From Candidatus Hodarchaeota archaeon (lineage in GTDB: Archaea > Asgardarchaeota > Lokiarchaeia > Sigyniarchaeales > SOKP01): a DNA stretch of 64,000 bases. The DNA is taken from NCBI GenBank assembly GCA_048886685.1, contig JBHLKM010000012.1, forward strand, positions 577 to 64,576. The letters run 5' to 3'. Both the position numbers and the translations under genes were made by a program. This document shows, in pieces, positions 3,184 to 49,827 of the stretch. The first letter of the stretch is position 1, and every line of letters begins with the position of its first letter. The notes under the pieces were generated by a model. That model had not been told where the DNA came from. It did no database searches and was given only the letters and a program-made list of their open reading frames with translations.

Positions 3184-6100
3184 TTATTTTGGTGATTTAT
3201 GTATCATTATACTCCCACCACCAATTTCCGTAGTCCCATCTAACTCTTCATTGTCAGCATCACCCAATCCGTTGTCATATATAATTATTTCTTCACCTGT
3301 TTCCTCGTTTTCTATCCATATCTTAATCCTGAACCTGTCGGCAGCACCTCCACCAACTAATTCTCCATCAATTGCTGTAAGGATGAATTTATATGAGCCT
3401 TCACCATTAATTGTTCCAATACCCTTGAAAATCGCCTTTGCTCCTGCAATTGTCAACCAATCATAAGTATCCGAGTGAAAATTCAAATCTCCTGCGTGGA
3501 ACATGAACTCAGTATTTCCCGTGGGTATTAGAGTTCCTTTCTTGTACTTTGCCACAAACCCAAAGTTTGCTTTACCACATAAACCAGGATCTGCTGGATA
3601 AGCATCCTCAGGGGAATCTATCCAACCCCCTCCTGTGACAAAACCTCGTGAAGCGTCATAGATGACAATATATTGTGACCACATCGCTGTTTCACTCTCA
3701 CCAACAGAATCTTCAATAGTAAGAGTGACAACATAAACCCCTGGTTCATTGTATATATGGGAACCAATAACTATATCATTTGTTTGATCCACAGTGCCTT
3801 TTGAGGTTGTATCATCTCCCCAGTCCCATGTGGCGTTATGGATTTCATCAACATCTAGATCGGTGAAATCAGCTGTCATCTCACAAGAAGTTCCTAGAAC
3901 GAGAGGTTCTAATGGTCCTGTAAATGTAATCTCTGCATCTCTAAAAACGACCCTCTTCACTATGATGGAGTTGAAATTGTTATCTGTGACATTAATAGTT
4001 ATTGTATTTTCACCCAACTCAAGGCCTTCTACTGTAGTGTTGAAAGAGACCTCATTTGGAATACCAGTGGGGGTGCGCTCTATTTCTACGCCGTTGACTG
4101 TTACATTTCGCACACCTGAGTCATCTATTGCTGTTCCTTCAACATAGACGCTAGATCCCCAGATCTGTTCAGAACTCTCTGGTTGCGAAATATAAACTGT
4201 GGGGGCATCAATATCCTTTCTAATAACGTCTCCAGGCTCTGCAGTAACGGGAGGTTCACCAGGTACCGGATCCTCTGCTTCTTGTACAATTGTGCCAATC
4301 GTGTCCGATTGCCCCTCATCAAGAGAGACATCCTCAAAAGATTGTGCTAATAAGATTTCACCCACCGCACTGGTGAATACTTGCAAAGAATAAGTAGTAT
4401 CCTCAGTCGCTGTTATTTCGATAGTATAGGTTCCAGTTAAAGGTGCTTCGGGGTCGATAGCTATGAGGATCATTATACTAGCCTCTCCAGGCTCCCATTC
4501 TTCATTTTCTATGTAGAATGCATTCAAACCAATCTCATTAACATCAGCAGTAATTATTCGTCCATAAGGATCCACAGCCTCGACAATTACAGGAGAACCA
4601 CCATGTCCTACCATCCAAGCATCAGCGTACGGAAGTGGTCCATACTGTTCTGGAATTGAAGGATCCATAAGTGGATAGTAATCAACCTCTTCATGTGGTA
4701 GCTGAGTATCACCTATATAATCTCCAGCTATTCTTCCACCACTCCCATCATCTTCTCCCCAATAATTACTCCAGAAATTTCCGGTTTCATTAACGGCATC
4801 ATACCAAAAATTAGTACCAGGATATACATCTGCAATCTGGAACCCATTATTGATCAAAAGATTACGATAAATATAATTCGAAGTAGCATTCACAGCAGCA
4901 CCAACGTTATTTCTAGTGATGATATTATTAGTAACTTCATTCTGCGTTGAGGAAAGTAAAATACCAGTATTAAGATTATCAGATATATAATTTGCTGAGA
5001 TCTTATTTTGCTCACCACCATAAATTGCTATCCCATCGAAAAATCCTTGAACTGTAAGATTTTTTACTGATACATAATTCTGATTAATGATTCTAACTCC
5101 AGTTCCACTTCCATTCCCTATAATTTTATATCCATTGCCATTAAGCGTAATTCCATCCTCAACAATTTCAAAACCAGCATTCGCCCCAAAATATATATCT
5201 GAAGTTAGTGTAAAATCATTTGAGACTTGGATCGTTCCAGAAGTCAGTTGTAGCATCAAGTATTGAATATACGTAAATCCCGTGTCCCAATCCGTCATTG
5301 TAACCCAAAACCAGGGGGGACCAAATGGATCTCCGAGTGTACCTCCTGGACTCACATCCCAATCCCATCCATCATTTGAGTCTAATCTTTTTCTGAATTC
5401 GAATAGATAATAATCACCATCAAATACACCCATCCCTTCCATATCGTTTTGACCTGAAACTTCTGTATCTAGATACCAAAGATATCCATCAAAACCATAC
5501 CTGTCGTTTGTCCATCCACCTATCCCTACACTTGCACCATCACTTTGAGTACGTGGATTCCCGTAAAAACCGGAGGAACCTATACCTGCCACCTCTGGTT
5601 GAGTATCCAGTTCGGGCCATTCAATTTCATATAACCCATAAAGCCATTCACCATCATTTTTGAAGCGGACAGTGGGCACTTTATCGCTTCGTAGATAAAA
5701 TGGAGTTGGCCATCCTCCTGCTTTGTAAAGGGGTATATCATACGGGATGGCATCTGTCCACTCTCCCGAAGATATAATTCCATCCAAAGTCACCCCATTC
5801 GTAAGCCAATTACTAATTAAATGACGTCTGCTCAGTTGTACAGAAACCCATTGTTCAAAGCTGGAAACGAGTAGAGAGTCAAATAAATGAACTAAGAAAT
5901 ATGGACCCATTATTTCTCCTGGCCATTGAACCCAATCTTGAGGATCTCCTGAATTTAATTCTTTTCTGAATTCAAATCTATAGTACAAATCATCAGATGA
6001 ACCCGTTCCTTCCACATTATTTTCGCCACCACTAGCATCTAAATCATTATGCCAGTAAGTTCCAGTCCAACCATATTCGTCTCTAGTTCCACCACCCAAT

Positions 6101-8076
6101 TCTACTACTCCATTATCACCGAAAGTCTCCCAGAAAAATGCTATTCCTGCCCATTCAGGTGCAGTTTCCAGCTGAGCTTTTGGAATCTCATATAAAATAT
6201 AAAGCCACTCTTCATCATTTTTAAACCGGACGGTAAGGACTTTCGAGCTTGGTTCAGATTGCCTGTTTGGCCACCCCCAGGTACGATTTAGAGCTATATC
6301 ATAAGCGATCGTTTCATCCCATTCTCCTAGTGAGATGACTCCGTCAAGAGTAACTTCATTGACAAGCCAATTGCTCTTTAATTGAGGAACAGATAATTGC
6401 ACGGAATGAAACCATACTTTATCGAGAGGATTTGGTAGAAAACCAACAAATTTATTATTAAAGGCATCGTAATTTCGTGCTACAAATAACCAACACCATG
6501 GAAAAACCTCTTCCACCAATCTTCGTTGAATATCATCGTAGAGAGTTTCTCTAGCACCTGGATCCAATTCAGATTCAGCGCTGCCAATCCATCCTTGCAC
6601 GGTAGCATCATTAACCTGAGCTAAATTCCAGTAACCATCACTAGAGAATAAATGGTTAATATAATCATATGGATCATTGTAGTCAGCACCCCAACCAATG
6701 TAAAAGAGTTCCAACAAATTTCTTTCTTCTGTAGCTCTTCTCAAGAACTCTTCCCAGGTGATTACCTCCTCTAGGACAATTACACCAATTTTTTCAAGAT
6801 TTTCTTGCAGTATGTTTATAAGAGGCATCCGAGGATCATCGGTTCCCCACCAATATGAAAAATTATAAACAGCAAGTGGATTAGTGTTTGCTCTATCTAC
6901 CCACCCTTGGTCATCATCAACCAATGGTAGATCAATATACATTCCTGAATCTATTAGAGCTTGCCTTGCTGTTGTGATGTTTGTTTGCGGAACGTTAAAT
7001 CCCCAATTGAAATATCTAATGCCCAATGGGAGAGGTGATTTCAGTCTTACGGCCTCACCATTCATGAGTTCTTCAATAATCCGATAGTAATCAATAGCAT
7101 ATGATATAGCCTTTCTCATATATACAGGAATTAGTTGATTATTCATTCCAAGATATCTTATTGTTGTATCTGAATGCGAACCTCCCAAAGTGATCTCAGA
7201 ATTATCTCTAAGTTCTTGAAGCATAGTTCTGTCTGGAGTATTTATAAAGTCTATTTCTCCGTCTAGTAGAGCCTGAGTTCTATCTTGGCTGTCTGGAATA
7301 ATGGAAAATATTAATTCATCGATATCCGCAGCACCTCCCCAATAGTTATCATATTTTTGAAACCTTACCTCTACATTTTCAATATATTCATTGTATTCAA
7401 ATGGTCCTGTTCCAACCAAGTCTCCAGTTAATAAATCAATATAATCCTCTGCTGGAGTTGAGAGAGGGGACATAATCCCAGATCCACTTACACACAGTAG
7501 GGCTTCAAAGGGAGCGAATTTTCTGTTTAAAACAAATTGTATATGAGTAGCGTTATATATGTTTGTCGAATTGATTATAGGTGTCCCATCAGGCCAACGA
7601 TATAAAGAAGAGAGTTGGCTTGGTTCTGCATGGGAATTCATTAAATAGTTTAATCTATCAAAATTCCATATTACTGCAGTTTTGTCAAGCAGTGACCCAT
7701 CATGAAACGTTACCCCTTCTCTAACTGGAACAAAGTATCTTAAACCATCCACTGACCATGTACCGTAACCTGATGCGAGCCGTGGGATGATATTAAGTTC
7801 TGGACTTGATAAATCATAGGCGAACAACGTTTCAACGACCTGATCAATAACATTCCAAGAATCATAATCCCAAGCATTATGAGGATCTAAATCATGTGGT
7901 CCAGCATCAGTGCCAAATTTGAATGTTATAGGTGAACTCGAAGTTTTTGGGGTTATGATTTCTTCTACTTTTTTATTAATTTTTTTAATTTCTACTGGAG
8001 AATAAATAAACGTTCCAATAATTAGCGTAATCACTAAGAAGATTGCAATTCTATTTTTTTTCATTTTCAAGCACAT
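3184..8076 (-). CDS. giant anchored surface protein: family-5 solute-binding domain fused to a duplicated beta-sandwich domain, parallel beta-helix, Ig-like and PKD domains
   Basis: 1630 aa. N-terminal hydrophobic anchor (IAIFLVITLIIGTFIY). Residues about 50-560 look like an Opp/Dpp/Nik-type SBP (DPHNAWDYDSWNVIDQVVETLF, YIGWGADYNDPYDY). Two tandem repeats of about 188 aa follow. Then PbH1/NosD-like repeats (VSVKNLTVQGFFDGIAIYGGEQNKISANYISDN) and a PKD signature (WDWGDDTTSKG...HIYNEPGVYVVTLTIEDSVGES). Confidence 0.7.
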   Translation of the reverse strand: MCLKMKKNRIAIFLVITLIIGTFIYSPVEIKKINKKVEEIITPKTSSSPITFKFGTDAGPHDLDPHNAWDYDSWNVIDQVVETLFAYDLSSPELNIIPRLASGYGTWSVDGLRYFVPVREGVTFHDGSLLDKTAVIWNFDRLNYLMNSHAEPSQLSSLYRWPDGTPIINSTNIYNATHIQFVLNRKFAPFEALLCVSGSGIMSPLSTPAEDYIDLLTGDLVGTGPFEYNEYIENVEVRFQKYDNYWGGAADIDELIFSIIPDSQDRTQALLDGEIDFINTPDRTMLQELRDNSEITLGGSHSDTTIRYLGMNNQLIPVYMRKAISYAIDYYRIIEELMNGEAVRLKSPLPLGIRYFNWGFNVPQTNITTARQALIDSGMYIDLPLVDDDQGWVDRANTNPLAVYNFSYWWGTDDPRMPLINILQENLEKIGVIVLEEVITWEEFLRRATEERNLLELFYIGWGADYNDPYDYINHLFSSDGYWNLAQVNDATVQGWIGSAESELDPGARETLYDDIQRRLVEEVFPWCWLFVARNYDAFNNKFVGFLPNPLDKVWFHSVQLSVPQLKSNWLVNEVTLDGVISLGEWDETIAYDIALNRTWGWPNRQSEPSSKVLTVRFKNDEEWLYILYEIPKAQLETAPEWAGIAFFWETFGDNGVVELGGGTRDEYGWTGTYWHNDLDASGGENNVEGTGSSDDLYYRFEFRKELNSGDPQDWVQWPGEIMGPYFLVHLFDSLLVSSFEQWVSVQLSRRHLISNWLTNGVTLDGIISSGEWTDAIPYDIPLYKAGGWPTPFYLRSDKVPTVRFKNDGEWLYGLYEIEWPELDTQPEVAGIGSSGFYGNPRTQSDGASVGIGGWTNDRYGFDGYLWYLDTEVSGQNDMEGMGVFDGDYYLFEFRKRLDSNDGWDWDVSPGGTLGDPFGPPWFWVTMTDWDTGFTYIQYLMLQLTSGTIQVSNDFTLTSDIYFGANAGFEIVEDGITLNGNGYKIIGNGSGTGVRIINQNYVSVKNLTVQGFFDGIAIYGGEQNKISANYISDNLNTGILLSSTQNEVTNNIITRNNVGAAVNATSNYIYRNLLINNGFQIADVYPGTNFWYDAVNETGNFWSNYWGEDDGSGGRIAGDYIGDTQLPHEEVDYYPLMDPSIPEQYGPLPYADAWMVGHGGSPVIVEAVDPYGRIITADVNEIGLNAFYIENEEWEPGEASIMILIAIDPEAPLTGTYTIEITATEDTTYSLQVFTSAVGEILLAQSFEDVSLDEGQSDTIGTIVQEAEDPVPGEPPVTAEPGDVIRKDIDAPTVYISQPESSEQIWGSSVYVEGTAIDDSGVRNVTVNGVEIERTPTGIPNEVSFNTTVEGLELGENTITINVTDNNFNSIIVKRVVFRDAEITFTGPLEPLVLGTSCEMTADFTDLDVDEIHNATWDWGDDTTSKGTVDQTNDIVIGSHIYNEPGVYVVTLTIEDSVGESETAMWSQYIVIYDASRGFVTGGGWIDSPEDAYPADPGLCGKANFGFVAKYKKGTLIPTGNTEFMFHAGDLNFHSDTYDWLTIAGAKAIFKGIGTINGEGSYKFILTAIDGELVGGGAADRFRIKIWIENEETGEEIIIYDNGLGDADNEELDGTTEIGGGSIMIHKSPK

Positions 8077-41277: not shown

Positions 41278-41787
41278 CTAAAGATTTTTAATGATTTCTT
41301 TTGCTAATAATCTAAACGCTAAATCCACGTTTACGCCCGTTTTGGAAGAAATTTTTAAATACTTAAAAAAACCATACTTCTCTGGAAAGCTCCGCGCAAA
41401 TTTATCTTCGACAGTAATCGAATCTCTTAAATCTAATTTAGATCCTAGGAAGATTATAGGGATTCCTGGATTTTCACCTCTACATATGTTAACCCATTGT
41501 TCAATATTTTCTAAACTTGATGGGCGTGTAAGATCAAATAATAATAAAGCACCTTTTGCCCCTAAAGAGTAATCTTTCAGTAAAGGTCTAAAATGGTCTT
41601 GTCCACCAAAATCCCAAACCTGCAAAGTAATTGTTTCTCCTTTAATATACATCTCTTTGAGAAAGAACTCTACGCCTAAGGTCATCTTTGTGTCTGCTAA
41701 AAATTTCCCTTCCACATACCGATACAGAAGTGTTGTTTTTCCTACACCTCCATCTCCGGCAGTAATGACCTTTAATAATTTGGACAT
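41278..41787 (-). CDS. Rab/Ras-like small GTPase
   Basis: G1 GDGGVGKTT, switch I TLGVEF, G3 WDFGGQDHF, G4 variant GSKLDL, G5 ISSKTG. No prenylation Cys. Confidence 0.85.
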   Translation of the reverse strand: MSKLLKVITAGDGGVGKTTLLYRYVEGKFLADTKMTLGVEFFLKEMYIKGETITLQVWDFGGQDHFRPLLKDYSLGAKGALLLFDLTRPSSLENIEQWVNICRGENPGIPIIFLGSKLDLRDSITVEDKFARSFPEKYGFFKYLKISSKTGVNVDLAFRLLAKEIIKNL

Positions 41788-41953
41788 TTTACCTCATCAG
41801 ATTCACAAAAGTGAACGAAAAACTTGATTATTGAATAATATTTGGTTTATTGAATTTTATATTTCTTCATTTTTAAAATAGTTTTGTGAATAATAAATCT
41901 TCATATTATCAATAAATAAAGTCCATGTAATAAAAAATCAACGTGAAAACTTG

Positions 41954-42397
41954 TTAAGATCTTTCGATGGATAAATATTTTTTTTGTCGAAGAAAAATTG
42001 TATTTATATTTGATAATCTTGCTTTTCTACGTAATTCAGAATCATTTGTTGCTAAAAAGGTAATATATCCTTCCTCCTTTAACTCTAAGGTTTTCTGCAA
42101 GAGGAATGCATCAGTCAATTCACTGGGCTCTTTAGTGTCTTCTAAGTAGATTATTTCATAATTGGCTTTATTCTTCTCTAGATATAATAACCCAGAATCT
42201 AGCAATCTTTTGAATTTTGTACTCTTTGATTGTCTTCTCCTTTTAGCTTCAAGCTCATCTAATATCTGTTTAAATATAACAAATCGTAATTTTCCTTCCA
42301 ATTTTAACCTAATTTCACTTAAATAATCTATTTTAAACTGATAAGGAAGTAGAATAAAGTTTGAATCAATTACTATTAGATTAATATTAGACTTCAA
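41954..42397 (-). CDS. PIN-domain nuclease, Fcf1/Utp24-like
   Basis: VIDSNFILLPYQFKIDYLSEI (first Asp), ILDELEA, TDAFLL, LATNDSELRRKARLSNINTIFLRQKKYLSIE. The TTG start overlaps the TGA stop of the upstream GTPase gene (TTGA). Confidence 0.6.
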   Translation of the reverse strand: MKSNINLIVIDSNFILLPYQFKIDYLSEIRLKLEGKLRFVIFKQILDELEAKRRRQSKSTKFKRLLDSGLLYLEKNKANYEIIYLEDTKEPSELTDAFLLQKTLELKEEGYITFLATNDSELRRKARLSNINTIFLRQKKYLSIERS

Positions 42398-42915
42398 TAA
42401 GTCTGTCGCTCTAAGATTTTTTTTGTTAAAATATCAAATGCTTGACTTACATTTTCACCCGTTTTTGATGAAATTTTAAGAAAGTCAATTAAATTATATT
42501 CATTGAGAAATGACCTAGCATAATCATCATCCACTTGAATTTCATCTTCCAAATCTAATTTAGTACCTAGAAAAAGAACGGGAAGATTCGGGTCTCCCTT
42601 ACGAACGATGCCAAGCCACTGTTCAAGATTTTCCAATGTCATCATCCTTGTAAGATCAAACATAAGCAGTGCTCCTTTTGCTCCAAGCACATAACTTTCA
42701 AGAAGGAATCGAAAACGCTCTTGTCCTCCAAAATCCCAAAGTTGCAGGGTGCACTGTTTACCATCAATTTCTGTCTCTTTTAAAAAGAATTCAACACCAA
42801 TAGTCATGCGAGTGTCTGCCGAGAATTTACCTTCTACGTACCGATGTAAGAGTGTTGTTTTTCCAACACCCCCTTCTCCAGCTGTTAAAATTTTTAATAT
42901 AAACTTCTGTGGCAT
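42394..42915 (-). CDS. Rab/Ras-like small GTPase
   Basis: G1 GEGGVGKTT, switch I TIGVEF, G3 WDFGGQERF, G4 GTKLDL, G5 ISSKTG. Paralog of 41278..41787. Confidence 0.85.
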   Translation of the reverse strand: MPQKFILKILTAGEGGVGKTTLLHRYVEGKFSADTRMTIGVEFFLKETEIDGKQCTLQLWDFGGQERFRFLLESYVLGAKGALLMFDLTRMMTLENLEQWLGIVRKGDPNLPVLFLGTKLDLEDEIQVDDDYARSFLNEYNLIDFLKISSKTGENVSQAFDILTKKILERQTY

Positions 42916-44087: not shown

Positions 44088-44630
44088 TTATGCAAATCTT
44101 TGCTTTTCTTTGTGCTCTTTTACGGAAATTTCTCTTTCACTAAGTCTTTCAAGTTTTATTAAAGTATCTTGAATTGCCTTAATTTCTACCCTAGTATTGA
44201 TTTTATATTTTTTTAATTTATCAAGCATTTCTTTTTCACTATAACCTTTATTGTAAACCTCCTTGAATGCCTGAATGGTATCTTGATGGTAGGAGATGTA
44301 CTGTTTGTTTAAAAAGATTATTAACCATTTTTTTTTCTGTTGGTCTTGGGATAATCTAAACATCCCATCTCTGATTTTCTCAATAGGCTTATTGAACTTT
44401 CTTGCAATTAATTCATCCTCAATCTTGTAAAATTTTTTGATAAATCTGTGGAGTTTATTTTTAAGAAAGAACCTTGGGATATATGAAAGTAAAAACGTCA
44501 CTAATGTTATTCCAGCCATCCAAATGGCTGCAAATGGATTAAAAAATGCTATAATAACAATTATTATGACAAGAATTAAGAACCATCTTCGTCCTATACT
44601 TTTAAAAATAACTATATATTTTTTTGGCAT
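44088..44630 (-). CDS. hypothetical membrane protein
   Basis: 180 aa. Two N-terminal hydrophobic helices followed by a helical, K-rich soluble domain. Confidence 0.4.
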   Translation of the reverse strand: MPKKYIVIFKSIGRRWFLILVIIIVIIAFFNPFAAIWMAGITLVTFLLSYIPRFFLKNKLHRFIKKFYKIEDELIARKFNKPIEKIRDGMFRLSQDQQKKKWLIIFLNKQYISYHQDTIQAFKEVYNKGYSEKEMLDKLKKYKINTRVEIKAIQDTLIKLERLSEREISVKEHKEKQRFA

Positions 44631-44728
44631 ATTTATCTAAAATTTTGCAATTAATTGTAATATATCTTATCATTGATTACATAAAAAAATTATTTATAGA
44701 AAAATGTAGGAGAATTTATTACTTATAA

Positions 44729-44931
44729 CCACATAAAATAGCGTGACCGGGTATTATCCTTGTAAGCCATGACCGTAAGCGGACTTACAGCTTATAGTTT
44801 CCCACAGATTTCACTTACAACACGGAGTGAGTTGTAAATCGTAACTGCAGTACTATCTATAACGCTAACCAGTTTAACTTCCGGGTTCGGATGGTTCCAG
44901 CGCTGTAGCGAAATGCTACCTTTTTATGTGG
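44729..44931 (-). rRNA. rrf: 5S rRNA, oversized (about 203 nt between the terminal helix strands)
   Basis: The minus-strand sequence contains the universal 5S loop C/helix III segment CCAUCCGAACCCGGAAGUUAAAC. It also has helix II (CGCUA.CAG/CUG.GU.UAGCG) and helix V (UUAUAG/CUAUAA). Loop E is AGUACUG...GGGAAA, and a 10-bp terminal helix pairs CCACAUAAAA with UUUUAUGUGG. By hand count, 83 of 180 nt at 44741-44920 are G+C, well above the visibly AT-rich surroundings. Confidence 0.8.
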
Positions 44932-44952
44932 ATAGGTAACTATGTCTTTACC

Positions 44953-44961
44953 ATTTAATAA
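44953..44961 (-). promoter_or_regulatory. candidate TATA box for the 5S rRNA gene
   Basis: TTATTAAAT on the minus strand is centred about 26 nt upstream of the first base of the terminal helix. An oligo-T run on the minus strand downstream of 44729 could terminate. The AT-rich background makes this weak. Confidence 0.3.
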
Positions 44962-45093
44962 GTCCGGTTATTTACAGTATAAATACCTTCTTATTAGGTA
45001 ATGAGTAAGTAGAAATAATAAAGACTAGTAATTAAACTTTTTCATAGAAAAAGGCAAAATTTAAAAGGAGTAAACTAAGATATGCCCTAGAAT

Positions 45094-48264: not shown

Positions 48265-49827
48265 ATGTCCTATGAATTAGAAGATATTTCGGGAATTGGT
48301 AAATCAATCGCGGAAAAAATGAAAGCGGCAGGAATAGATTCAATTGAAAAACTGGTTGCTGTAAAACCCAATGATTTAGTAAAATTAAAAATAAAAGGCG
48401 TAGGAAAGGCAACAGCAGAAAAAATTATTACTAGTGCTAAAGAGATTTTTGAGGAAGTAGGTGGAAAAATAAAGTCTTCAGTAGTAATAAAAGAAAAAAC
48501 TGAGGAGGATGTTACTTCAAAACCTAAACCAAAACCAGATTCTAAGGTAAAAGGATCTGAAATAAAAGAATTAATTAGACAACAAGCAGAATGTAATATT
48601 GGTCTTGTAGGCCATGTAGATCACGGTAAAACCACCTTAGTTAAATCTTTAACAGGGGATTGGACTGATCGACATTCTGAAGAGCAAGAAAGAGGCATTT
48701 CGATAAAATTAGGATATTCTAATGCGACGATTCTTTATTGTCCTTCATGTAATGAATATACAACTGCCTACCTTGCAGAAAAAAACAGGAAGAAGGGACA
48801 ACCTCGATTTATTTGTTCAAAATGTAATGGTAACTTAGAATTTAGGCGTAATATTTCTTTTGTAGATGCACCAGGTCACGAGATTTTGATGGCAACCATG
48901 TTAAGTGGAGCCTCCTTGATGGATGGAGCATGTCTTTTAATAGCTGCTGACGAACAATGTCCTCAACCTCAAACTCGGGAACATTTAGCTGCTTTAAATA
49001 TTGCAGGGATTAAAAATATTATAATATTGCAAAATAAAATTGATGCTGTTTCTCGAGAACAAGCTTTAGAAAATTACCAACAGATCAAAGAATTTGTAAA
49101 AGGTACAGTAGCTGAGAACGCCCCAATTATACCTGTATCAGCAGTTTTTGAGTCAAATATGCATCTTGTTGTGAAAGCTTTTGAAGAAATAATCCCAACT
49201 CCAGAGTTTAAAGAAGATGAATCATTTCAATTTTTAATAGCAAGATCGTTTGATATTAATCGCCCTGGTAAAGAGATTATTGATTTAAAAGGTGGTGTAA
49301 TAGGGGGATCTGTATTAAAAGGAAAAATTGAAGTAGGGGATCAAATAGAAATTAAACCAGGAATTCGTATTAAGGATGAATATATCCCGATAAAATCTAA
49401 GGTAGTAAGCATTAGTCAAGGAAATAATTATTTGAAAACTGCTAAACCGGGTGGATTAATAGGTTTAGGTACAAACTTAGATCCTGCTTTAACTAAAGGT
49501 GATCATCTAATTGGACATTTAGTTGGAGGACCTGGAACTCTTCCAGGAATATTAACTGAAGTTGAGTTAAATGTCCATCTTTTAGATCGAGTGATTGGTT
49601 CTGAAGTCCAAATGAAGGTTCAACCTCTCAAACATGGCGAAAAATTGTTATTAGTTGTTGGGACAGAAAAGACTGGAGGAACCGTAACAAAAATATTAAA
49701 AAATTCGACTATAATAAAACTTACTCCACCTATATGTCCTCCTGAGAACTTCATTTATGCAATTTCTCGTATAATTAATAGACGTTATCGTTTAATAGGA
49801 TATGGTGAAGAAATTAATCATACTTAA
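48265..49827 (+). CDS. eif2g: translation initiation factor aIF-2 gamma with N-terminal (HhH)2 extension
   Basis: From about aa 105 the protein is collinear with aIF2-gamma (NIGLVGHVDHGKTTL, zinc knuckle CPSC...CSKC, DAPGHE, QNKID, domains II/III). Residues 1-62 contain two helix-hairpin-helix motifs (ISGIGKSIAEKM, IKGVGKATAEKI), followed by a K/P-rich linker. Confidence 0.9.
   Translation: MSYELEDISGIGKSIAEKMKAAGIDSIEKLVAVKPNDLVKLKIKGVGKATAEKIITSAKEIFEEVGGKIKSSVVIKEKTEEDVTSKPKPKPDSKVKGSEIKELIRQQAECNIGLVGHVDHGKTTLVKSLTGDWTDRHSEEQERGISIKLGYSNATILYCPSCNEYTTAYLAEKNRKKGQPRFICSKCNGNLEFRRNISFVDAPGHEILMATMLSGASLMDGACLLIAADEQCPQPQTREHLAALNIAGIKNIIILQNKIDAVSREQALENYQQIKEFVKGTVAENAPIIPVSAVFESNMHLVVKAFEEIIPTPEFKEDESFQFLIARSFDINRPGKEIIDLKGGVIGGSVLKGKIEVGDQIEIKPGIRIKDEYIPIKSKVVSISQGNNYLKTAKPGGLIGLGTNLDPALTKGDHLIGHLVGGPGTLPGILTEVELNVHLLDRVIGSEVQMKVQPLKHGEKLLLVVGTEKTGGTVTKILKNSTIIKLTPPICPPENFIYAISRIINRRYRLIGYGEEINHT

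Follow-up and report, generated by a model that had tools for sequence, protein, structure and literature searches.

The stretch of DNA analysed here, called the window throughout, comprises 64,000 nucleotides (nt) of contig JBHLKM010000012.1 (assembly GCA_048886685.1, positions 577 to 64,576) from a Candidatus Hodarchaeota archaeon that GTDB places in the Lokiarchaeia. At 44729-44931 its minus strand carries a 5S ribosomal RNA (rRNA) gene, and we are concerned with the order in which this gene encodes the parts of its RNA and with the form of the mature molecule. Coordinates are those of the window and refer to its minus strand unless stated otherwise; a position p in the RNA equals 44932 minus the window coordinate. 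The transcription unit of 203 nt is delimited by a terminal helix, has homologues in 62 distinct sequences from 75 loci, and folds better than its shuffles (z = -3.5). An initial annotation, made from the letters alone, had recognised a 5S gene here, and every sequence feature that it listed is present on the minus strand. The conserved loop C/helix III sequence CCGAACCCGGAAGUUAAAC lies at RNA positions 42-60, the identical 19-mer being found in canonical archaeal 5S genes; helix V (UUAUAG/CUAUAA), loop E (AGUACUG opposite GGGAAA) and helix IV (CUGCAG/CUGUGG) are all in place, and a 10-bp pairing of CCACAUAAAA with UUUUAUGUGG closes the unit.

That annotation read the gene as a 5S in canonical order, with the 10-bp pairing as helix I, an expansion in helix IV, a 48-nt expansion between helix V and helix I, and a four-way junction as in Halococcus morrhuae. 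Extra sequence does lie at both of these places, about 37 nt inside helix IV and about 50 nt between the 3' strand of helix V and the terminal helix; its reading as retained expansion segments did not survive the comparisons described below. Aligning the region with the Rfam 5S model (RF00001), a check the annotation had proposed, gave a match at 44782-44929 with a 37-nt insert state in helix IV/loop D and a poor helix I, at a score (23.2 bits, E 0.033) below the gathering score of 38. A scan at the gathering threshold returned zero matches in the whole 64-kb window and in nine relatives of all types. Searching the window by E value yielded, beyond the sub-threshold 5S, MtlS (E 4.7) and STnc550 (E 7), both chance matches to small RNAs (sRNAs). 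No second 5S was found in the window with Rfam or with our own model, the sole other match being a weak one (15.8 bits, E 0.25) that adjoins the gene.

Relatives were collected in two scans. Searching one genome per species with the loop C 19-mer recovered 27 complete loci and one truncated locus with the architecture of the window gene, mostly labelled Promethearchaeota or Promethearchaeia, with a few other Asgard or unspecific archaeal labels; the same scan also found canonical 5S genes of other archaea and of bacteria of the candidate phyla radiation (CPR). A metagenome scan with TGTAAG-N4-CTTACGGTCATGG, the most conserved piece of the second insert, added about 50 loci and brought the total to the 75 loci and 62 distinct sequences given above. 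Covariation statistics refer to 34 genomic sequences of relatives. At least 25 species-level genomes have one and the same architecture; between distinct sequences the core shows 87% identity and numerous compensatory changes. Five of the loci (L008, L009, L011, L041 and L044) come from metagenome-assembled genomes (MAGs) labelled Hermodarchaeota, Odinarchaeota or Thorarchaeota, and their 5S genes are near-identical to those of Promethearchaeota MAGs of the same study series; either these labels are unreliable or the gene design reaches beyond the Lokiarchaeia.

The second insert, almost invariant across relatives, reads in order as helix I 5' strand CUUACGGU, loop A CAUGG (canonical CAUAG), helix II 5' strand, loop B GAUAAUA and helix III 5' strand CCCGGUC. 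We compared this 3' segment (RNA 153-187) with 12 canonical archaeal 5' parts and found a likeness of z 4.9 over shuffles, against z -1.0 for the 5' leader of the gene. The native 3' and 5' ends are joined in a canonical helix I capped by a tetraloop, GCUGUAAG-UCCG-CUUACGGU (44772-44791), whose 8 bp are paired in 100% of cells and whose loop varies among relatives as YYNG (UCCG, UUCG, UUUG, UUAG, CUAG, CUCG). When the 34 genomic sequences were evaluated in a permuted fold, 93.8% of cells were paired and 23 pairs showed compensatory changes, with slid controls at 33-42%. Helix II, formed by the 3' segment with the strand after loop C, is compensatory at six of its eight pairs, as in CUCUCGAG/CUAGAGAG of L060 and UAUAUAAG/CUUAUAUA of L117; helix V is paired in 99.5% of cells (three of six pairs compensatory) and helix IV in 95% (two of six). 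After re-ordering, 94.7% of cells agree with the canonical 5S structure, and a model built from the re-ordered sequences alone finds the canonical 5S of Thermoproteota, Thaumarchaeota, DPANN and CPR at full length with 35-65 bits.

The canonical-order reading fares differently with the same data. Its helix II is paired in 53.5% of cells and its helix III in 66%, and in each of them two pairs (the inner two of helix III) never form. The hairpin proposed for the second insert, UGUAAG...CUUACA around CCG/CGG, is literally in the sequence; it shows no compensatory change, and one of its pairs is broken in 28 of the 34 relatives. The pairing that relatives do back there is that of GCUGUAAG with CUUACGGU. 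Resemblance to canonical 5' parts is found in the supposed insert and not in the leader, and a second type of gene, in which loop C is encoded in the 3' part, is left unexplained. What the canonical order has in its favour is that the terminal helix is real and covarying (94% of cells paired, compensatory changes at 7 of its 13 pairs), that loop C begins 41 nt from the 5' end, as in canonical 5S, that Rfam aligns the region in that order with 23.2 bits, and that Halococcus has a four-way junction at its insertion site (PMC7530397). With the covariation data already contradicting it, we consider this reading very improbable. A related candidate, an expanded 5S with a complete canonical core, was rejected as well: without the "48-nt insert" the core has no working helices I and II, and the insert is the canonical 5' half. 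A C/D-box sRNA in the second insert was likewise discarded, since no C or D boxes are there.

Because the second insert resembles a canonical 5' part and supplies the covarying strand of helix II, and because helices II and III fail in canonical order, the gene is almost certainly circularly permuted. On this reading the 10-bp helix that had been called helix I would instead be the leader-trailer stem of the permuted gene. Its 5' strand CCACAUAAAA occupies 44922-44931 and pairs with 44729-44738. The leader, predicted to be removed, spans 37 nt (44895-44931, RNA 1-37) and, as noted, has no likeness to canonical 5' parts; the trailer, also predicted to be removed, spans 16 nt (44729-44744, RNA 188-203) and includes the 3' strand of the terminal helix, UUUUAUGUGG (44738-44729).

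Where leader and trailer meet the body of the 5S, their strands can form a motif of the bulge-helix-bulge (BHB) kind, in the strand order recognised by the archaeal splicing endonuclease. The 5' strand (44894-44904) consists of outer helix AGCG (44904-44901), central helix CUGG (44900-44897) and bulge AAC (44896-44894), with a predicted cut at 44895/44894; the 3' strand (44740-44750) consists of central helix CCGG (44750-44747), which is also the 5' strand of helix III, bulge UCA (44746-44744) and outer helix CGCU (44743-44740), with a predicted cut at 44745/44744. Among relatives the outer helix covaries (GCG/CGC, GUG/CAC, ACG/CGU, UCG/CGA, GAGUG/CACUC, GAGCG/CGCUC) and the central helix CYGG/CCGG is paired in 99% of cells. 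Cuts were placed by one rule, after the second bulge nucleotide, which agrees with the canonical intron position 37/38 of transfer RNA (tRNA). In the window this rule joins ...AAUACCCGGUC to CCAUCCGAAC..., giving the predicted terminal junction AAUACCCGGUC|CCAUCCGAACC. Both gene types carry a redundant CYGG-AA at the end of the leader, which competes with helix III for the same CCGG; serving only to build the terminal BHB, it would look like what is expected of a precursor-only structure. In one sublineage (L016, L036, L045, L075, L077 and L098) the trailer is longer by 11-12 nt (CGAUCUGGA or UUAUACGGA), which separate the outer helix of the BHB from the terminal helix, and the leader hairpin described below is weaker.

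The 62 distinct sequences divide into 50 of type 1, to which the window gene belongs, and 12 of type 2. In type 2, loop C is encoded at the 3' end (...ACCCGGUCCCAUCCGAACCCGGAA|ACGC...), the gene starts ...GCG-CCGG-AA|GUUAAAC, and the BHB motif sits 16 nt further along the molecule than in type 1. Applied to these genes, the same cleavage rule joins CCGGAA to GUUAAAC. One rule thereby leads from both types to one continuous sequence, ACCCGGUCCCAUCCGAACCCGGAAGUUAAAC, that is, ACCCGGUC|CCAUCCGAACCCGGAA|GUUAAAC, and the junction predicted for each type stands as uninterrupted sequence in genes of the other type and in canonical archaeal 5S. We regard this agreement between the predicted junctions of the two types as the decisive observation on the terminal motif. 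In a metagenome contig (L086:1-230) a type 2 gene is followed, after about 25 nt, by a copy that has lost everything between the leader hairpin and loop D, a tandem truncated duplicate that fits with the permutation having arisen by duplication.

The other extra segment, named an expansion hairpin in the initial annotation, forms together with helix IV a second and complete BHB at 44802-44850 (CUGCAG-UUAC-GAU-UUACAAC...GUUGUAA-GUGA-AAU-CUGUGG). Helix IV itself is the outer helix h (CUGCAG/CUGUGG, 6 bp); the central helix H is UUAC/GUGA (4 bp), the bulges GAU and AAU have 3 nt each on opposite strands, and the inner helix h' is UUACAAC/GUUGUAA (7 bp). This strict hBHBh' arrangement, whose quality was reached by 2 of 1000 shuffles, delimits a putative mini-intron of 30 nt in loop D, UUUACAACUCACUCCGUGUUGUAAGUGAAA (44809-44838, RNA 94-123), with the predicted junction CAGUUACGA|UCUGUGGGAA. 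Splicing would leave UUACGA|U, a 7-nt loop as in intron-less relatives (UUGCGAU and similar).

Comparison across the 62 sequences pointed in the same direction. Before intron removal the predicted products measure 120-122 nt or 150-152 nt, and with the 30-nt inserts taken out each of the 62 measures 120-122 nt. Of the 17 inserts, at least 15 conform to BHB introns with a length of exactly 30 nt, which lie in loop D or loop C, are unrelated in sequence and have inner helices that covary. L059, L120 and the L009 group have unrelated 30-nt sequences at the same loop D site in the same geometry; L067 and L072 have their intron a few nucleotides from this site, and without it their sequence is that of the intron-less L109/L118. 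Four loci have 30-nt introns in loop C, with a central helix UCYG/CGGG and covarying inner helices, and their removal restores CCGAA|CCCGG. No BHB motif was found for the L109 insert, and L034 was left out of the relaxed-criteria re-scan that recovered its relative L009. The length of the inserts is constant (29-31 nt from product lengths, exactly 30 where a BHB was mapped) whatever the site or sequence, and at least five unrelated sequence families occur at the loop D site. Given the strict BHB geometry, and relatives with unrelated 30-nt sequences or none at this site, we interpret the helix IV insert as an intron. ARAGORN found no tRNAs in the window or beside 40 relatives, which leaves the analysis with no internal control for BHB introns. 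Taken together, the two BHB motifs of the window gene are probably processing sites.

From these elements a maturation pathway can be proposed. The start of transcription would lie some 25 nt downstream of a TATA element that is conserved. The transcript would begin with the 37-nt leader, followed by loop C, the 3' strands of helices III and II, and the helix V/loop E/helix IV domain with its 30-nt loop D intron; the helix I 3' strand, UCCG tetraloop, helix I 5' strand, loop A, helix II 5' strand, loop B, helix III 5' strand and 16-nt trailer would come after. Pairing of leader and trailer, through the 10-bp helix and AGCG/CGCU, would present the terminal BHB with its central helix CUGG/CCGG and bulges AAC and UCA. 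EndA, the archaeal splicing endonuclease, would cut both BHBs after the second bulge nucleotide, and RtcB, an RNA ligase, would join the exon ends, with the intron out and ...ACCCGGUC linked to CCAUCCGAAC.... Exon 1 (44839-44894, RNA 38-93) would contribute loop C, the 3' strands of helix III and helix II (CUGGUUAG), the 5' strands of helix V, loop E and helix IV, and the first 6 nt of loop D. Exon 2 (44745-44808, RNA 124-187) would contribute the last loop D nucleotide, the 3' strands of helix IV, loop E and helix V, the helix I 3' strand GCUGUAAG, UCCG, CUUACGGU, CAUGG, the helix II 5' strand CUUACAAG, loop B, and CCGGUC as helix III 5' strand. The product would be a covalently closed circle of 120 nt with the canonical 5S fold and a tetraloop-capped helix I, and it is this circle that would enter the ribosome. 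Whether it is folded as a closed circle (-24.3 kcal/mol) or with the tetraloop opened, the 120-nt product has the canonical 5S three-way junction as its minimum free energy (MFE) structure. A mature RNA of about 120 nt, predicted here, is also the outcome that the initial annotation had itself set against its reading of a retained expansion.

Three published observations make such a pathway plausible. Asgard archaea encode a broad-specificity (alpha-beta)2 EndA with an L1 loop, suited to relaxed motifs (PMC5829648). Both 16S and 23S have been seen as circular transcripts in Asgard archaea, and mature archaeal ribosomes contain circular 23S (PMC12918454). Finally, Escherichia coli tolerates 5S with tetraloop-joined native ends, opened at loop C or D (PMC7283268). 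We would put the chance that the gene is a permuted, intron-bearing 5S matured through both BHBs into a circular mature 5S at about even, leaning if anything in its favour. For the broader statement, that Lokiarchaeia have in their ribosomes a mature 5S of about 120 nt which the tRNA-splicing endonuclease and ligase have closed covalently into a circle, starting from a permuted gene with an intron, we would stop somewhat short of an even chance.

Several points count against this account. The steps of cleavage, ligation, circularity and incorporation into the ribosome are inferred from sequence. The BHB conformer of the precursor is predicted at -42.1 kcal/mol, 21 kcal/mol above the MFE of -63.4, which belongs to a different fold. 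Single-sequence MFE folding and RNAalifold without aid both miss helices II and III and favour conserved GC-rich alternatives that show no covariation; we treat this failure as a limit of the energy model. Helix I is conserved and has no compensatory changes, and the central helix CYGG/CCGG is likewise conserved, or varies only between C and U opposite G, without compensatory changes. Scored with the model derived from re-ordered sequences, the genomic order also reaches 44-60 bits, which makes the model evidence of homology, not of permutation. Being of the relaxed hBH form, with the inner helix h' missing, the terminal BHB needs a broad-specificity endonuclease. Under loose criteria BHB-like motifs arise by chance about once per sequence, and only strict matches together with conservation were used above; the window also holds a second, non-conserved BHB of equal quality, whose cuts would fall after RNA positions 123 and 165. 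The leader contains a hairpin, GUAGC-AUUUC-GCUAC (44905-44919), within the part predicted to be discarded. Three of its six stem pairs are compensatory and its GC-NNUUC-GC core is invariant even in the most divergent type 1 genes, a degree of conservation unexpected for a discarded spacer; the hairpin is absent from several type 2 genes. It may help to guide processing or else be left over, as a relic, from the helix II/III of the first copy. Lastly, the same genomes may hold a canonical 5S with another loop C sequence; the scan that found no canonical 5S in any Promethearchaeota genome covered those with the universal loop C 19-mer.

That last result bears on the idea that the gene is a degenerate or non-functional 5S relic, the real 5S being encoded elsewhere. 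Its score under the Rfam gathering threshold and the presence of at least one truncated tandem copy in a relative (L086) would suit a relic. Conservation does not suit one: the promoter is conserved, the core retains its identity across distinct sequences with its many compensatory changes, the same architecture recurs throughout the species-level genomes, and the scan with the loop C 19-mer found no canonical gene in any Promethearchaeota genome. We rejected a pseudogene on conservation and regard a relic of this kind as extremely improbable.

A stronger competitor accepts the permuted core and dispenses with ligation. Here the transcript of about 200 nt, at most trimmed at its ends, would be the mature 5S, with the chain broken at the helix III/loop C boundary; the leader-trailer stem would stay as a helical appendage, and the helix IV hairpin might stay as an expansion segment. 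The permuted fold does form as an ordinary nested structure without any cut, at -44.6 kcal/mol against -42.1 for the BHB conformer, and the leader hairpin is conserved. Fragmented rRNAs function in other systems. The 5S of brown-algal mitochondria stays permuted in its final product (PMC4267664). Such a molecule would, however, have no role for the redundant CYGG-AA of both gene types, which recreates a 4-bp helix with 3-nt bulges in competition with helix III for CCGG, and in type 2 genes the universal CCGAACCCGGAAGUUAAAC would remain split between the two RNA ends. The inserts, exactly 30 nt long, strict in their BHB geometry and unrelated in sequence, resemble introns more than structural expansion segments, and the leader spacers of several type 2 genes are unconserved. 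On balance we think a permuted but unligated 5S unlikely.

Another possibility shares the first steps of the pathway that we prefer, and with them their evidence, and departs from it after circularisation through the BHB: a second nuclease would cut the helix I tetraloop and release a linear 5S that has canonical ends and measures about 116-120 nt. This is the route by which the permuted tRNAs of Cyanidioschyzon merolae mature (Soma 2007, as cited in PMC4267664), and for archaeal 16S and 23S circles re-linearisation is the general view (PMC12918454). The helix I loop of the 5S genes shows no evident processing signal; the YYNG loops, which include the stable UUCG and UCCG tetraloops, are what would be expected of a structural cap. 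We know of no enzyme that cuts such a helix I tetraloop. The circular 23S of mature archaeal ribosomes shows in addition that re-opening is not obligatory (PMC12918454). A re-opened circle appears to us quite unlikely, and a circle that persists as the end product is the reading that we carry forward.

The closest mechanistic analogue is provided by the permuted tRNA genes of Cyanidioschyzon merolae (Soma 2007, as cited in PMC4267664). As there, the 3' part lies upstream of the 5' part, a short linker connects the native ends, a BHB is formed by leader and trailer, and cleavage with ligation would restore the molecule. The present case differs in concerning a 5S rRNA, in an archaeon, with two permutation points within a lineage, and it shows no sign of a later opening at the native ends, which is why the circle may be the end product. 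With archaeal BHB introns and the processing stems of pre-16S and pre-23S rRNA (PMC7714728, PMC12918454, PMC3326292) the 5S motifs share a 4-bp helix between 3-nt bulges and flanking helices; the predicted enzymes, EndA and RtcB, and the release of a circle by cutting a leader-trailer stem are common to both. Unlike BHB introns elsewhere in archaea, those of the 5S genes are uniformly 30 nt long. We found no literature report that assigns a BHB intron, or a processing stem of the BHB kind, to a 5S rRNA gene; circular 5S reads in Sulfolobus and Halobacterium are rare, unvalidated and derived from canonical genes (PMC3326292). That circular rRNA can function is indicated by circular and permuted 23S in archaeal ribosomes (PMC7758197, PMC12918454), which concerns 23S and not a free 5S.

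Among 5S rRNAs the closest analogue is that of brown-algal mitochondria (Rfam mtPerm-5S; PMC4267664), which has in common with the Loki gene a closed helix I hairpin, permuted domains and a poor performance of the standard model. The algal RNA is permuted and linear, with its ends at the junction of helix I and the helix V domain, whereas the ends of the Loki gene lie at helix III/loop C, on a BHB that predicts re-ligation. Measured against the definition of mtPerm-5S, new termini at an open three-way junction, the Loki gene has its termini elsewhere, and only the closed helix I hairpin is common. Engineered permuted 5S of E. coli (PMC7283268) resembles it in having tetraloop-closed native ends and openings at loop C or D, the loops in which the Loki BHB elements sit; that RNA is artificial and tethered to 23S, not a natural free 5S.

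Expanded 5S rRNAs, exemplified by the 108-nt insertion of Halococcus morrhuae (PMC7812874, PMC7530397), are similar in that an oversized gene is overlooked by standard databases, and the extra sequence apparently lies on the helix V/helix I side of loop A in both. The Halococcus insertion is additional RNA kept in the ribosome; the corresponding segment here is the canonical 5' half, and the other is a predicted intron. A survey of prokaryotic 5S expansions lists archaeal cases only in Halobacteriales and none in Asgard (PMC7812874). The view of the initial annotation that an expanded Asgard 5S of this kind had not been described agrees with our own search, which turned up none. A literature search, outside which most subscription journals lay, likewise gave no archaeal 5S gene described as permuted, circular or intron-bearing. 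Permuted RNA genes, BHB introns and circularised rRNAs are all known kinds of object; as far as can be told, they are applied here to 5S rRNA for the first time.

The 5S of Asgard archaea has been treated as "essentially constant" (PMC7594248), and the authors of the closed Heimdallarchaeum genomes reported that 5S genes were not predictable in them (PMC8813620). If our interpretation is true, a whole archaeal class encodes its 5S in permuted form and with BHB introns, in a gene class that is invisible to Rfam-based annotation. A dedicated covariance model would then be needed, genome-quality criteria that require a 5S gene would be affected, and where 5S genes seem to be "missing" from other Asgard groups, for instance Heimdallarchaeia, this gene design or a variant of it could be the reason. 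The substrates of the archaeal splicing endonuclease would extend to the third rRNA, and circular 5S in ribosomes would become a directly testable prediction; borne out, it would mean that a circular 5S rRNA occurs in nature, in the lineage of prokaryotes closest to eukaryotes. The two permutation points, together with the loop C and loop D introns, would form a natural series for the origin of permuted RNA genes from intron-bearing genes by duplication.

The flanks of the unit are those of an independent gene. A promoter element, CTTATTAAATGG (44951-44962), with the TATA-like TTATTAAA at 44961-44954, ends 20 nt upstream of the terminal helix, and 55 loci, from both gene types, have the consensus AAAATAACCGAnCTTATAWAATGG at a fixed distance upstream of this helix. 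Since this conserved promoter-like element ends so close to the terminal helix, we take the 5S to be a gene of its own whose transcript begins near that helix; the usual archaeal distance from TATA to start predicts transcription from 44931 or just before it. Downstream, oligo-T runs at 44704-44700 and 44689-44683 (within 44683-44704) are candidate archaeal terminators. A second conserved element lies further upstream, at about 44985-45005, and reads CATTACCTAATAAGAAGGTATTT in the window and ATAACCATATAAGTAGGTATTT in L008, L011, L015, L021 and others. In relatives it stands about 70 nt upstream of the terminal helix and resembles the 5' strand of that helix, and our helix-finding script sometimes paired this element, not the 5' strand of the terminal helix, with the trailer.

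Just downstream of the 5S, at 44088-44630 on the minus strand, is an open reading frame of 180 amino acids (aa; MPKKYIVIFKS...) with an N-terminal hydrophobic stretch and no Pfam match. It is apparently syntenic with the 5S gene in many relatives, whose downstream sequence reads ...TTGCCAAAAAAGTATAT... at a similar distance. The neighbouring genes, a C25 peptidase among them, fit an Asgard, Loki-like genome of about 30% G+C. At 41278-42915 (minus strand) two small GTPase genes of the Ras/Arf family (169 and 173 aa) flank a 147-aa PIN_9-domain protein, whose frame overlaps the upstream GTPase gene by 4 nt, and the trio is operon-like. On the plus strand, 48265-49827 encodes an aIF2-gamma homologue with an N-terminal HHH_5 domain (about 60 aa) and a lysine/proline-rich linker before the GTPase domain. 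The highest G+C of the window (0.36-0.41, against about 0.30) is found at 3184-8076 on the minus strand, in a coding region for one protein of 1630 aa with SBP_bac_5, NosD/beta-helix and PKD domains.

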